64,000 bases of DNA from NCBI GenBank assembly GCA_964553015.1, contig CAZKJE010000001.1, positions 94,278 through 158,277 of the forward strand, written 5' to 3'. Positions 56,299-60,260 of this stretch are shown here, piece by piece. The number at the start of each line of letters is the position of its first letter. The first letter of the stretch is position 1. The notes below the pieces were generated by a model. That model had not been told where the DNA came from and did not search any database. It was given only the letters and a program-made list of their open reading frames with translations. The translations under genes were made by a program, and so were the position numbers. This DNA is from an uncultured Candidatus Saccharibacteria bacterium (GTDB lineage Bacteria; Patescibacteriota; Minisyncoccia; Phycocordibacterales; UBA9973).

Positions 56299-58317
56299 AT
56301 GAAACACTCAAATAGGCTGGAAGGAATTATTTCTATTTCCGCGAAAGGAACTGGTTATGTAAAAGCTATTGGGCACAAAGATGACATAGAGATTGATTTT
56401 AAGCACTTGAACACTGCCCTCAATGGGGACCTTGTAGAAATTACGCTTCATGCCAAAAGCCACGGGCGCACCACCGGCGAAGTTTCAAAAATAATTTCCC
56501 GCGCAAAAAAAGCTTTTGCCGGAGTGATAGAAGAAGAAAGTAAATTATTTTTCCTGAAGCCGGATGATACAAAAATGTATACGGACATATTAATCCCCTC
56601 CGGCATGCTTCACGGCGCAAAAGTCGGGCAGAAAGTATTCGTGGAAATAGTTTCATGGCTGGATTCACGCAAAGCCCCTGAAGGCAAAGTAGTAAAAGTT
56701 CTCGGTCTTCCCGGAGACAATGACACTGAGATGCATGCCATCGCCATGGAAAAAGGCTTTGATGCTGATCTTCCTAAAAAAGTTGAAGAAGAGGCGCGTA
56801 AAATAAAAGAGTCGGGAATAAAAGAAAGCGATTACATGGACAGGCGCGACATGAGAAACACACTCACCTTCACCATAGATCCTGCGGATGCAAAAGATTT
56901 TGATGATGCGATATCTTTTAAAGAGTTGAGGCGCGATACATACGAAATAGGCATACACATCGCCGACGTATCGCATTATGTAAAAGTCGGCAGCGCGCTA
57001 GACACAGAAGCACGCGAGCGCGGCACTTCGGTATACCTGGTAGACAGGACGATTCCCATGCTCCCTGAAGTTCTTTCAAACGATCTGTGCAGTCTCGTGC
57101 CAAATAAAGACCGGCTCACCATGAGCGCCATATTCGTCATAGATAAAAATGCGGAAGTCAAAGAGGAATGGTATGGGCGCACAGTCATTCACTCTAAAAA
57201 AAGGTTCACATATGAAGAAGCGGAGGAATCTATAAAAAAAGCAGGTACGCCTCTGCATAAAGAACTTTCTATTTTAAATAATCTCGCAAAAAAACTCACC
57301 TTCGAGCGATTTGCGAAGGGCGCCATCTCGCTTGATCAGGAAGAAGTAAAATTCGTACTTGATAAAAACGGCACGCCGATAAAAGTCATAAAAAAAGAGC
57401 GCGGAGATTCAAACCGGCTCATAGAGGAATTTATGCTTCTTGCAAATAAAAAAGTTGCCGAAATTCTGTCGTCCAAGAAGATTAAAGGCCTGCCTGCCGG
57501 TAGGCAGGGCAAAACAGAAGAAGGTGTTTCAATATACAGAGTGCATGATCTGCCAAGCAAAGAAAAAATGGCAGACTTGGCTTTCTTCCTGCGAAGTTTG
57601 GGCCACAAAGTAAGCCTGCGGGACGGCATAATCCCAACGCATGAAATAAATAAACTACTTTCAAACCTAGAAGGCCACGGAGCGAGAGAGCACACCATAA
57701 AAAGCACTATGCGAGATACGATACACCGCGCGGTGATAAGGTCTATGGCTAAAGCAATTTACTCTACCAAAAATATCGGACACTATGGATTGGCTTTCGG
57801 TCATTATACGCACTTCACTTCCCCGATCCGGCGCTATCCGGACATAATAATACACCGGCTTTTGAGCGACTACTTGGCAAAAAAGAAAGCTCCGACCAAA
57901 GTCGGGGTCCCGACCGCAAGCGTCGGGAATAAACTGCTTGAATATGAAAAAATGTCACTCATTGCTTCCGAGCAGGAAAAGCGCGCCGCGGATGCAGAAC
58001 GAGCTTCCGTAAAATATAAACAAGTGGAATATATGTCTGCTCGTTTAGGTGAAATTTTCAGCGGAGTAATCAGCGGTATGACAGAATGGGGCATATACGT
58101 GGAAGAAGTGGAGACAAAGTGTGAAGGGCTCGTGCGCATGCGGGACATGCAGGATGATTTTTATGTTTTTAACGAAAAAAAGCTTGAAATGATAGGTCAG
58201 AAAAAGAACCTGCCTGCCGGTAGGCAGGGAAAAAAATACCGCTTGGGTGATAAGGTAAAAATAAAAGTCAAAGGGGTTGACTTGGAGCGAAAGACAATAG
58301 ATTATGTGTTAGTATGA
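56299..58317 (+). CDS. rnr: Ribonuclease R / RNase II-family 3'-5' exoribonuclease
   Basis: RNB catalytic domain (FTIDPADAKDFDDAISFKEL..GIHIADVSHYV..SVYLVDRTIPMLPEVLSNDLCSLVP), N-terminal cold-shock/OB domain, C-terminal S1 domain. Contains two in-frame copies of a GC-rich palindrome encoding LPAGRQGK. Confidence 0.9.
   Translation: MKHSNRLEGIISISAKGTGYVKAIGHKDDIEIDFKHLNTALNGDLVEITLHAKSHGRTTGEVSKIISRAKKAFAGVIEEESKLFFLKPDDTKMYTDILIPSGMLHGAKVGQKVFVEIVSWLDSRKAPEGKVVKVLGLPGDNDTEMHAIAMEKGFDADLPKKVEEEARKIKESGIKESDYMDRRDMRNTLTFTIDPADAKDFDDAISFKELRRDTYEIGIHIADVSHYVKVGSALDTEARERGTSVYLVDRTIPMLPEVLSNDLCSLVPNKDRLTMSAIFVIDKNAEVKEEWYGRTVIHSKKRFTYEEAEESIKKAGTPLHKELSILNNLAKKLTFERFAKGAISLDQEEVKFVLDKNGTPIKVIKKERGDSNRLIEEFMLLANKKVAEILSSKKIKGLPAGRQGKTEEGVSIYRVHDLPSKEKMADLAFFLRSLGHKVSLRDGIIPTHEINKLLSNLEGHGAREHTIKSTMRDTIHRAVIRSMAKAIYSTKNIGHYGLAFGHYTHFTSPIRRYPDIIIHRLLSDYLAKKKAPTKVGVPTASVGNKLLEYEKMSLIASEQEKRAADAERASVKYKQVEYMSARLGEIFSGVISGMTEWGIYVEEVETKCEGLVRMRDMQDDFYVFNEKKLEMIGQKKNLPAGRQGKKYRLGDKVKIKVKGVDLERKTIDYVLV
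57488..57510. repeat. Intragenic GC-rich palindromic element, copy 1 (gcCTGCCTGCCGGTAGGCAGGgc), in-frame in rnr, encoding GLPAGRQGK
   Basis: 20-bp near-palindrome (arms cctgcctgcc / ggtaggcagg, 1 mismatch). Identical 21-mer at 58209-58229. Related perfect palindrome at 63968-63985. Confidence 0.7.
58208..58229. repeat. Intragenic GC-rich palindromic element, copy 2, in-frame in the rnr S1 region, encoding NLPAGRQGK
   Basis: cctgcctgccggtaggcaggg is identical to copy 1 over 21 nt. The local GC content contrasts sharply with surrounding AT-rich codons. Confidence 0.7.
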
Positions 58318-60260
58318 GGCCTCCGGAGAAAAGTAAAAAAACTAGAATAATATTATGGTCAATATTTCCGATACTTGTGGGAATACTTTTTGCTTCTTCT
58401 TTGTTTTCTGTTCTCCATAAAGGAAACTCAATTCTAGCGAAAGAAAGCATTGCCAGAGTAGTACAGCTTATACCGTCGGAGACTGTAAAACCTAAATATT
58501 TTTATACGAACACTGACCTTGTGGGAGCGCCAAAAGTTTCTGCAAAATCGTACTTAGTGGGCGACATTAATACTGGAGAAGTTATCCTGTCAAAAGATCA
58601 GGAGAATATATTGCCGCTCGCCTCGGTTTCAAAATTAATGACCGCAGTCGTCGCCAGCGAAATTGCCAAGCCGGATGAAGTGGCTTTTGTGTCCAAGCGC
58701 GCCCTTCTTACCTACGGACAAAATGGCGAACTGCGCCTGAAAGAAAACATAAAAATCACGGATCTTTTATATCCCCTGCTTCTGGAATCTTCCAATGACG
58801 CCGCAGAAGTAATCGCTGAACATTTCGGGCGTGATAGTTTCATAAGAAAGATGAACGTAAAAGCCGAATCGCTTGGCATGGAGGGCACATACTATGAAGA
58901 CCCGAGCGGACTTTCTCCGAACAATAAATCCACTGCTTCTGATGTGTTCAAACTAACGGGACACATTGCCAAAGAGCATCCTGACATTCTAAAGATCACA
59001 ATAAAGAGAAGTTTTTCAAATAAAAAACACAACTGGTCCAACATCAGCCAATTCTTAGGAAAAGACGGCTACATAGGCGGTAAAAGCGGATATACGGATG
59101 CAGCTCGGCAGACTGTAGTGTCTCTTTTCTCTCTGCCTCTAGCTGAAAAAAGCGATCGCCCTGTAGCCATCACTCTCCTTTCCAGCAAAGACAGGAAAAA
59201 AGACGTAGAAAGTATCGTAAATTATCTCAAGAAAAATGTGTATTATGGCGGCGCGCTCGGAGCTGTCACGAATTGGGTAGAACAAAGAGTCGGCGTGCCG
59301 GACATCAGAGAACCAGATTTTGTGACTCTCGCCTTTGGGGGCGATATTATGCTTGATCGCGGAGTGCGAAATTCAGTTATAAAAAATTTCGGGAATGATT
59401 ATTCCGCGCTGTTTTCAAAGTCAAAAGAAATTTCAAGCATATTTAAAAATTCTGATATAGCGTTCGCGAACTTGGAAGGCCCCGTATCTGATCAGGGTGC
59501 CGATATGAGAAATTTATATTCTTTCAGAATGGATCCGAGCGTAGTTCCCACTCTGAAAGGCGCCGGCATAAGCATCCTGTCCCTGGCAAATAACCATGTC
59601 GGCGATTGGGGCCGGGCAGCATACATAGATACGCTCGCCCGCTTAAAAGAAAATGAAATTCTATACACTGGCGGCGGAAATACCAGAACTGAAGCTGAAA
59701 CTCCGGCAGTCATAGAAAAATATGGCATGAAAATCGGATTTTTGGCATTTTCTGATGTCGGTCCAAACTGGATGGGAGTTCAAAACGAAAATGCGGGTTT
59801 ACTTTTAGCGAGCGATCCGCGATTTGACGAAATAATTAAAAACGCTTCAAGTCAGGTGGATTATCTCGTAGTATCTTTTCACTTCGGAGACGAATATAAG
59901 ACAGTTCACAATACGCGACAGGAATATTTAGCGCATAAGGCTGTGGATAATGGAGCTAAGATAGTTGTGGGCGCTCATCCACACGTAGTTCAGGACACAG
60001 AAGTTTACAGCCCAAAAGGTTGCACTCAAAGTTCGTGCATGAGTTTCATAGCCTACTCGCTCGGAAATTTTGTCTTTGATCAGTCGTGGAGCAAGGAAAC
60101 CATGAAAGGCATGGTTCTCGAAATCAAATTAGGCAAAGACGGCTCCATGTCTGTGCGAAAAGATCCGACGCAGTTAAATTCCGTATTCCAGCTCGAAAAA
60201 ATAATCCAAGGCAAAGAAGAAAAAATAAAATTTCCAGAAGTAAAACCTACTTTGCGATAG
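58314..60260 (+). CDS. Fusion protein: N-terminal TM + D-alanyl-D-alanine carboxypeptidase (peptidase S11, PBP5/6-like) + C-terminal CapA/PGA_cap metallophosphatase-like domain
   Basis: S11 motifs SVSKLMT (SxxK), SSNDAA (SxN), KSGYT (KTG-like). C-terminal half: AFGGDIMLDRGV, ANLEGPVSD, SLANNHVGDWG, VSFHFGDEY, GAHPHVVQ, SLGNFVFDQ match the CapA/PGA_cap family. Confidence 0.7.
   Translation: MRPPEKSKKTRIILWSIFPILVGILFASSLFSVLHKGNSILAKESIARVVQLIPSETVKPKYFYTNTDLVGAPKVSAKSYLVGDINTGEVILSKDQENILPLASVSKLMTAVVASEIAKPDEVAFVSKRALLTYGQNGELRLKENIKITDLLYPLLLESSNDAAEVIAEHFGRDSFIRKMNVKAESLGMEGTYYEDPSGLSPNNKSTASDVFKLTGHIAKEHPDILKITIKRSFSNKKHNWSNISQFLGKDGYIGGKSGYTDAARQTVVSLFSLPLAEKSDRPVAITLLSSKDRKKDVESIVNYLKKNVYYGGALGAVTNWVEQRVGVPDIREPDFVTLAFGGDIMLDRGVRNSVIKNFGNDYSALFSKSKEISSIFKNSDIAFANLEGPVSDQGADMRNLYSFRMDPSVVPTLKGAGISILSLANNHVGDWGRAAYIDTLARLKENEILYTGGGNTRTEAETPAVIEKYGMKIGFLAFSDVGPNWMGVQNENAGLLLASDPRFDEIIKNASSQVDYLVVSFHFGDEYKTVHNTRQEYLAHKAVDNGAKIVVGAHPHVVQDTEVYSPKGCTQSSCMSFIAYSLGNFVFDQSWSKETMKGMVLEIKLGKDGSMSVRKDPTQLNSVFQLEKIIQGKEEKIKFPEVKPTLR

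Follow-up and report, generated by a model that had tools for sequence, protein, structure and literature searches.

The biochemical role of the CapA/PgsA proteins of poly-gamma-glutamate (PGA) systems has been unclear for decades. In genuine systems capB, capC and capA are contiguous, as in the capB-capC-capA-capD-capE operon of Bacillus anthracis pXO2. CapA has been proposed as an epimerase that puts D-Glu into PGA (PMC8179263), and PhoA fusions gave an N-in/C-out topology for PgsA (PMC7490850). The only characterised relative, MslH (8gq9), is a peptide epimerase. It carries out Ca(II)-dependent epimerisation of the C-terminal Trp of a lasso peptide, using Glu44, Asn87, His259 and His261 as metal ligands and His88/Asp91 and His295/Asp11 as catalytic dyads (PMC10406935). 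Here, we describe a gene that fuses a Peptidase_S11 domain to a PGA_cap domain of this family. It lies in a 64,000-nucleotide stretch from an uncultured Candidatus Saccharibacteria bacterium (contig CAZKJE010000001.1, positions 94,278 to 158,277), hereafter the window, in which positions are counted from the first nucleotide. We tentatively propose that the product is a membrane-anchored, extracytoplasmic two-enzyme protein, in which the S11 domain and an active MslH/CapA-type PGA_cap domain edit stem peptides, with epimerisation as the favoured chemistry of the latter; taken as a whole, this statement stands a little short of an even chance. Its central part, that the PGA_cap domain is a catalytically active module directed at peptidoglycan with no role in PGA synthesis, is likely.

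The protein is encoded by one uninterrupted open reading frame (ORF) of 648 amino acids, with no frameshift or internal stop in either the ORF list or the sequence. Pfam matched Peptidase_S11 (PF00768) at residues 70-270 (E 9.5e-37, 127.2 bits against a cutoff of 27.6) and PGA_cap (PF09587) at residues 338-590, over profile positions 1-255 of 255 (E 1.2e-64, 218.8 bits against a cutoff of 27). A protein database search with the fusion returned 1346 matches at E <=1e-10, and the best 120 of these all have 589-658 amino acids, 63-86% identity and both Pfam domains. Counted as clusters at 90% identity, there are at least 120 orthologues from many assemblies. Where a source is named, it is Candidatus Nomurabacteria, Paceibacterota, Minisyncoccia or Parcubacteria, all of the Parcubacteria group/Patescibacteria. 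The initial annotation had read the gene as a single polypeptide, and this reading stands; the two-gene alternative is effectively refuted. An artefact, in which faulty sequencing or assembly merged two genes or the ORF arose by chance, could appeal to one relative (locus L014) in which split S11 and PGA_cap genes exist. The split products are each anchored, whereas the window protein has one anchor at its N-terminus, and at least 120 independent full-length orthologues share the start and a conserved linker motif (YYGG..W), which speaks against an artefact; its probability is negligible.

The predicted N-terminal membrane anchor is supported by three features. Five of the first 11 residues are K or R, they are followed by a 22-residue hydrophobic stretch (residues 12-33) that contains the Kyte-Doolittle 19-residue maximum of 2.32, and the AlphaFold2 (AF2) model places a helix at residues 9-35 (mean predicted local distance difference test, pLDDT, 77 for the whole protein). 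The anchor is kept in 108/108 relatives of the S11 type and in 115/116 of a second type that carries a VanY domain, which is absent from the window protein. The N-terminal anchor predicts an extracytoplasmic location for both domains. Between them, the segment of residues 304-321 (nucleotides 59223-59276) has invariant Y304, Y310, Y311, G312, G313 and W321 despite low model confidence; rather than serving as a passive tether, it may help the two enzymes to dock onto each other.

The PGA_cap domain retains most of the residues on which MslH depends. Seven of the eight ligand and dyad residues of MslH are identical in the window protein (D344, E388, N427, H428, D431, H523 and H557), and the eighth, His261, is replaced by Gly525. 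These seven and E527 are also identical in CapA, and all of them except E527 align to MslH. The claim that the C-terminal half keeps its metal ligands was borne out on alignment. Among 153 related PGA_cap domains, a set that covers every architecture and includes the second copies of tandem proteins, each catalytic position is conserved in 143-153. The putative asparagine ligand lies in the fuller motif N426-N427-H428..D431. H555 appears to sit where the GHxH motif has its canonical first histidine, a position that MslH fills with His261 from another loop (comparison with YmdB, PMC10406935); judged from the sequence, H555 may supply the metal ligand in place of His261. In the second copies of tandem proteins the core residues are kept and R349, R405, H555 and D589/Q590 are altered; these copies are therefore more likely to be paralogues with a specificity of their own than inactive domains.

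The same residues bear on whether PGA_cap is a hydrolase. The domain could be a metal-dependent cell-wall hydrolase that trims the stem peptide further, for example by cleaving the bond between gamma-D-Glu and the diamino acid, or a phosphoesterase that takes off phosphodiester-linked wall polymers or dephosphorylates undecaprenyl pyrophosphate; the whole protein would then be a hydrolase assembly line for wall turnover or amino-acid scavenging. Its fold is that of the calcineurin-like metallophosphoesterase superfamily, and a CapA-like domain is fused to PahZ1, a poly(aspartic acid) serine hydrolase, in Brevifollis gellanilyticus, outside the Candidate Phyla Radiation (CPR) (PMC13017698). The classical binuclear phosphoesterase motifs are nevertheless not present: motif I, DxH, reads D-I-M, and the aspartate position of the GD motif II reads NLE. 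Without the DxH histidine, the sequence fits a site for a single metal, like that of MslH. In addition, the papers cited here on MslH, CapA and PgsA report no hydrolytic activity for PGA_cap members (PMC10406935, PMC8179263, PMC7490850). We consider a hydrolase or phosphoesterase unlikely.

The 64-kb window and 10 related loci (~100 kb) were searched by tblastn with CapB, CapC, CapD and CapA of B. anthracis pXO2. Apart from one spurious match at E 0.31, the first three queries gave no match, and the CapA query matched only the fusion genes, with 32-37% identity. The initial annotation had suggested a coupled envelope-polymer attachment; in the poly-gamma-glutamate sense this is not supported, with no capB, capC or capD found in these loci and with partner domains that are mostly peptidoglycan enzymes. 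A capsule role would cast PGA_cap as a CapA/PgsA protein in the synthesis, export or anchoring of PGA or a similar polymer, with S11 coupling it to peptidoglycan trimming or to a transpeptidase-type attachment. It can draw on the full-length PGA_cap match, on conserved residues shared with B. anthracis CapA (32% identity), on the N-in/C-out topology shared with PgsA, and on the strict DD-transpeptidase K15 among the S11 relatives. Against it, the gene sits among housekeeping genes, with rpoB, rpoC, dnaG, rpoD, mreB, mreC, tgt and hisS elsewhere in the window, and in positional orthologues a zinc VanY/LdcB domain replaces or joins S11. Enzymes of this zinc class form no acyl-enzyme and cannot transpeptidate, which argues that D-Ala removal, not polymer attachment, is the shared requirement. 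One survey of digester metagenome-assembled genomes (MAGs) bears on the question indirectly: the PGA synthase gene was rare outside Bacillota and Cloacimonadota (PMC13082233). We regard the capsule role as improbable.

The N-terminal half has the active-site boxes of a serine DD-peptidase. Conservation was judged on two orthologue alignments of 120 and 44 sequences, in which S104, K107, S159, N161, K257 and G259 are invariant, together with D344, E388, N427, H428, D431, H523, E527, H555 and H557 of the PGA_cap half. The diagnostic motifs reported by the initial annotation are therefore intact in both halves; its third box is to be corrected, since it reads KSG and not KTG. KSG is a common variant of the third box of penicillin-binding proteins (PBPs), and the domain has the penicillin-binding fold. 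The label PBP5-type holds for the S11 catalytic domain and no further. Pfam gave no PBP5_C match to the C-terminal beta-sandwich domain of PBP5 in the window protein, the anchor is N-terminal, and the protein scores far below the cutoff of every named NCBIfam equivalog (PbpG, 94 bits against 294; DacA, 34.9 against 694).

In the slot occupied by the window gene, the related locus L006 has an anchor, a PGA_cap domain 53-54% identical to that of the window and a C-terminal VanY-type zinc peptidase; L007 has S11–PGA_cap–VanY; and L008 has an L,D-transpeptidase domain in front (YkuD–S11–PGA_cap). In L014 (269-3434) the S11 and PGA_cap genes are separate, 7 nucleotides apart, and are followed by a YkuD–S11 gene. 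The PGA_cap–VanY proteins form a family of their own, whose best 120 clusters all carry PF09587 and PF02557. An additional stand-alone PGA_cap paralogue of 387 amino acids, with an MslH-like 'GSGPH', lies directly downstream of the fusion gene in L004 (4395-5558).

When HMMER was run exhaustively with just the PGA_cap domain as query, it returned 24,182 relatives, and architectures were counted among the 150 nearest representatives at 50% identity, using local hidden Markov models built from Pfam-verified segments and Pfam itself on subsets. Stand-alone anchored PGA_cap proteins account for 82/150. S11 is present in 37/150, 15 of which are YkuD–S11–PGA_cap; VanY in 15/150; YkuD in at least 16/150; Polysacc_deac_1 in 3/150; and Amidase_2 and Peptidase_M23 in 1/150 each. 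Tandem PGA_cap–PGA_cap proteins with no further domain make up 4/150, and five multi-domain proteins also have two copies. A Memo-like domain occurs in at least 5/150 and a beta-propeller in 2/150. The Memo-like (PF01875)–PGA_cap fusion is recurrent (P0322, P0331, P0373, P0379 and P0344, the last at L010 5282-7072), once with YkuD added. With S11 at this frequency and at least 120 orthologue clusters, the claim that the fusion is not a standard domain combination had to be dropped; it is the standard gene at the rnr–smc locus in Parcubacteria-group bacteria. A neighbour-joining tree of PGA_cap domains intermingles the architectures, a sign that domains have been shuffled repeatedly.

Among structures, the LdcB LD-carboxypeptidases are the nearest to the VanY-type domain, ahead of VanXY (E values down to 2e-38; 4jid, 4mph and 4ox3, the last two of which we take to be LdcB, and 4ox5, labelled LdcB in the search output). 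S11 DD-carboxypeptidases make tetrapeptide stems, and LdcB and YkuD enzymes use them. Because one recurrent partner makes this product and LdcB-like VanY and YkuD consume it, the partners appear to converge on the tetrapeptide stem. We considered S11 and VanY as interchangeable analogues. The M15B zinc enzymes of the VanY/LdcB class and S11 both remove C-terminal D-Ala from stem peptides, but they are unrelated in fold and mechanism (zinc peptidase versus serine acyl-enzyme) and sit at opposite ends of the protein. This view was softened, as the VanY domain is closest to LD-carboxypeptidases and triple fusions hold both; the two may represent sequential steps, with VanY as the next trimming step.

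The range of partners also bears on two of the other explanations. Most partners are hydrolases (S11, VanY/LdcB, Amidase_2, M23 and the deacetylase), and the order S11–PGA_cap–VanY could mirror sequential trimming, both of which speak for a hydrolytic PGA_cap. Promiscuous fusion to many wall enzymes, together with tandem copies, is typical of wall-binding modules, so that PGA_cap might be a non-catalytic binding or regulatory module like LysM, SH3b or SPOR. Enzyme-derived binding modules, however, usually lose their catalytic residues, and here these residues persist across the domains examined, second copies included; the stand-alone anchored proteins, moreover, would have nothing to target. 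A binding module is very improbable.

We prefer stem-peptide processing to capsule anchoring because most domains found in place of S11, or together with it, belong to peptidoglycan enzymes (VanY/LdcB, YkuD, Amidase_2, M23 and polysaccharide deacetylase). In the proposed mechanism, the S11 domain would remove the terminal D-Ala from pentapeptide stems and leave tetrapeptide stems, a step well supported by homology. The PGA_cap domain, probably a mononuclear metal enzyme, would act on the stem peptide, most likely the tetrapeptide. As in MslH, its metal site would bind a free alpha-carboxylate, that of D-Ala4 once exposed as the C-terminus, of iso-Glu or of the diamino acid. The two dyads, H428/D431 and H557/D344, would then take up the alpha-proton and give it back, so that a stem-peptide residue would be epimerised without a cofactor. 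Epimerisation as the specific chemistry is possible but doubtful. A wider proposal, that PGA_cap is an extracytoplasmic, cofactor-free, metal-dependent epimerase of stem residues with a free alpha-carboxylate and, by extension, that the CapA family consists of peptide epimerases acting on gamma-Glu (PGA), beta-Asp (polyaspartate) and peptide C-termini (lasso peptides and murein), with capsule synthesis as one specialised use, is rather unlikely to hold in full.

Several points weigh against stem-peptide editing by an epimerase. Conservation of His, Asp and metal-binding residues cannot separate an epimerase from a hydrolase, as classical metallophosphoesterases share most of them. MslH His261 corresponds to Gly525, and the peptide-binding G-domain of MslH (about 90 residues, ~138-227) has no counterpart in the window protein, so that substrate recognition must differ. 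Extracellular epimerisation of a stem residue is without an established physiological reason. PbpG and K15 score about as well as DacB-type matches for the S11 domain, which, from its sequence, could be an endopeptidase or transpeptidase instead of a carboxypeptidase. The beta-propeller and Memo-like partners are not known peptidoglycan enzymes, and the latter, without a known cell-wall role, is unexplained by a peptidoglycan model. The stand-alone relatives (82 of 150) have neighbours that are not always cell-wall genes. Finally, the capB/capC null is a local one, covering the window and ~100 kb from related loci.

Public databases contain both the sequences and the two-domain annotation, under the names 'CapA family protein' and, at JGI, 'D-alanyl-D-alanine carboxypeptidase/poly-gamma-glutamate capsule biosynthesis protein CapA/YwtB'. 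Within the searchable literature library, no paper was found on an S11–PGA_cap fusion or on a peptidoglycan role for PGA_cap, and no CPR-specific literature on racemases or D-alanine, so that an argument from D-amino-acid supply was dropped. For thousands of CPR proteins, the automatic label 'CapA family / capsule biosynthesis protein' probably misleads. CPR cell walls are essentially unstudied, and the present analysis suggests that these bacteria may carry a peptidoglycan-editing activity undescribed in model organisms. With no capBC nearby, tetrapeptide-stem and murein-hydrolase partners and every catalytic residue, the Parcubacteria-group clade offers a second testable substrate context for the PGA_cap family, in which defined muropeptides and a soluble ectodomain could be used in place of an unstable membrane synthetase.

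Table 1. Positions of the fusion gene, its domains and key residues, and its flanking genes. Positions are those of the window, and fractions are counts among the related PGA_cap domains.
Feature	Position	Strand	Basis or remark
rnr (RNase R/II family), upstream gene	56299..58317	+	Pfam RNB, CSD2, OB_RNB, S1
ATGA start/stop overlap with rnr	58314..58317	+	sequence
Whole gene, S11–PGA_cap fusion, 648 amino acids, stop codon included	58314..60260	+	ORF list, Pfam, orthologues
N-terminal signal-anchor/transmembrane helix, residues 9-35, after K/R-rich cytoplasmic tail (residues 1-11)	58338..58418	+	AF2, Kyte-Doolittle
Tether, predicted disordered, poorly conserved, residues 36-69	58419..58520	+	pLDDT 26-44, low conservation
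Peptidase_S11 catalytic domain (class C low-molecular-weight PBP), residues 70-310	58521..59243	+	
SxxK box S104-V-S-K107, with nucleophile serine	58623..58634	+	S104 and K107 invariant
SxN box S159-S-N161	58788..58796	+	invariant
K-S-G box K257-S258-G259	59082..59090	+	K257 and G259 invariant; S258 at least 90% conserved
Interdomain linker, residues 311-335	59244..59318	+	pLDDT <50 for residues 312-332; invariant Y310-Y311-G312-G313 and W321
PGA_cap domain (CapA/MslH-type, calcineurin-like fold), residues 336-640	59319..60233	+	
D344 (GGDIM), equivalent of MslH Asp11	59343..59345	+	D in 146/153, the other 7 gaps; aligned with CapA
E388 (NLEG), equivalent of MslH Ca(II) ligand Glu44	59475..59477	+	HMMER alignment to 8gq9; E in 150/153
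R405 (YSFR motif), clade-specific conserved arginine, candidate substrate-carboxylate binder	59526..59528	+	R in 135/153, K in 8/153; 'HLS' in CapA, 'IAD' in MslH
N427-H428-V-G-D431, equivalents of MslH Asn87 (metal ligand) and His88/Asp91 (catalytic dyad)	59592..59606	+	N in 150/153, H in 153/153, D in 152/153
H523-F-G-D-E527; H523 equivalent of MslH His259 (metal ligand)	59880..59894	+	H in 151/153, E in 151/153; E527 invariant in PGA_cap clade
H555-P-H557 (GAHPH); H557 equivalent of MslH His295 (second catalytic base)	59976..59984	+	H557 in 149/153, H555 in 143/153
Convergent SMC-like ATPase, 715 amino acids, overlapping the fusion 3' end by 14 nucleotides	60247..62394	-	Pfam SMC_N

The surroundings of the gene are conserved. 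Six Patescibacteria MAG loci share an arrangement in which rpsP and a KH-protein gene point one way and rnr and the fusion gene the other, with a convergent short SMC-like gene, rnc and nusB–nudix. The organism is therefore placed in the Parcubacteria group of the CPR. The initial annotation had inferred co-translation with RNase R. The ATGA overlap is real and rnr lies upstream in 8/8 loci, but the overlap itself occurs in 4/8 only (the window, L001, L005 and L007), the others having gaps of 3-18 nucleotides. An operon of rnr and the fusion gene is reasonable and translational coupling is possible, but these data do not point to a functional link with RNase R. A scan of the region for promoters and terminators gave nothing above shuffle expectation. 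The position of the SMC-like gene is kept in L001, L003, L005, L006 and L007. SMC_N spans its whole product, with no hinge-domain match, and the short length is kept in relatives (709-754 amino acids). Further along, 63109-63846 (-) encodes a protein in which a C-terminal portion of NusB is joined to a NUDIX hydrolase domain (Pfam NusB at residues 2-79, NUDIX at 114-225), whose equivalents in related loci have 306-312 amino acids.

Within rnr, a 20-nucleotide imperfect palindrome, CCTGCCTGCCGGTAGGCAGG (26 nucleotides with flank), occurs twice, at 57489-57508 and 58209-58228. Each copy is read in frame as L-P-A-G-R-Q-G-K, and the chance expectation is zero copies. The rnr of the closest relative has one copy (L001 5881-5900) and the other loci have none. 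Its appearance is that of a small palindromic element that has entered the coding sequence in frame, much like those known from Rickettsia.

Two GC-rich islands, at 54470-54892 and 55700-56190, have 51-59% GC against about 36-45% around them. The first is a 420-nucleotide gap between trmD and the KH-protein gene with only implausible ORFs. The second coincides with a lipoprotein-like ORF of 139 amino acids (55769-56188, start MKLFLVVLAVMLVTGC) with no Pfam match. A search of both islands against Rfam gave nothing credible, only a sub-threshold snoRNA match. Elsewhere the window encodes putative surface proteins of kinds not usual in a small CPR genome: a cohesin-domain protein (30462-31502, -), a protein with Big_6 and dockerin domains (32316-33347, -), one of 1295 amino acids with YDG, Ig-like and PG_binding_1 domains (6009-9896, -), and one of 1402 amino acids with a Peptidase_S74 (endosialidase chaperone) domain such as phage tail fibres carry (18910-23118, -).

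Compared with known systems, the fusion protein resembles each in part. Unlike the class C PBPs (B. subtilis DacB/PBP5*, 3mfd; M. tuberculosis DacB2, 4rye; Streptomyces K15; E. coli PBP5/6 and PbpG), it lacks a C-terminal amphipathic anchor, has an N-terminal helix instead, and its S11 domain is covalently linked to a PGA_cap domain. To MslH it is only 18-25% identical and scores 52-56 bits against the 700-bit equivalog cutoff (NCBIfam NF038314). It is extracytoplasmic and membrane-anchored, unlike MslH, and its gene adjoins rnr and smc instead of a lasso-peptide gene cluster. The Brevifollis PahZ1 protein, likened here by description, likewise joins a CapA-like domain to a serine hydrolase and has a peptide-polymer substrate with free alpha-carboxylates. 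It differs in partner enzyme, substrate and phylum, and its CapA-like domain was not characterised in that study; by analogy, it fits a CapA family that handles peptides with free alpha-carboxylates. With CapA of B. anthracis, a member of the same Pfam family at 32% identity, the window protein shares D, R, N.E, NNH..D, H.G.EY, HPH and YSLGNF.FDQ. CapA is without the YSFR motif and, in contrast to the PGA_cap domain described here, is not fused to a PBP.

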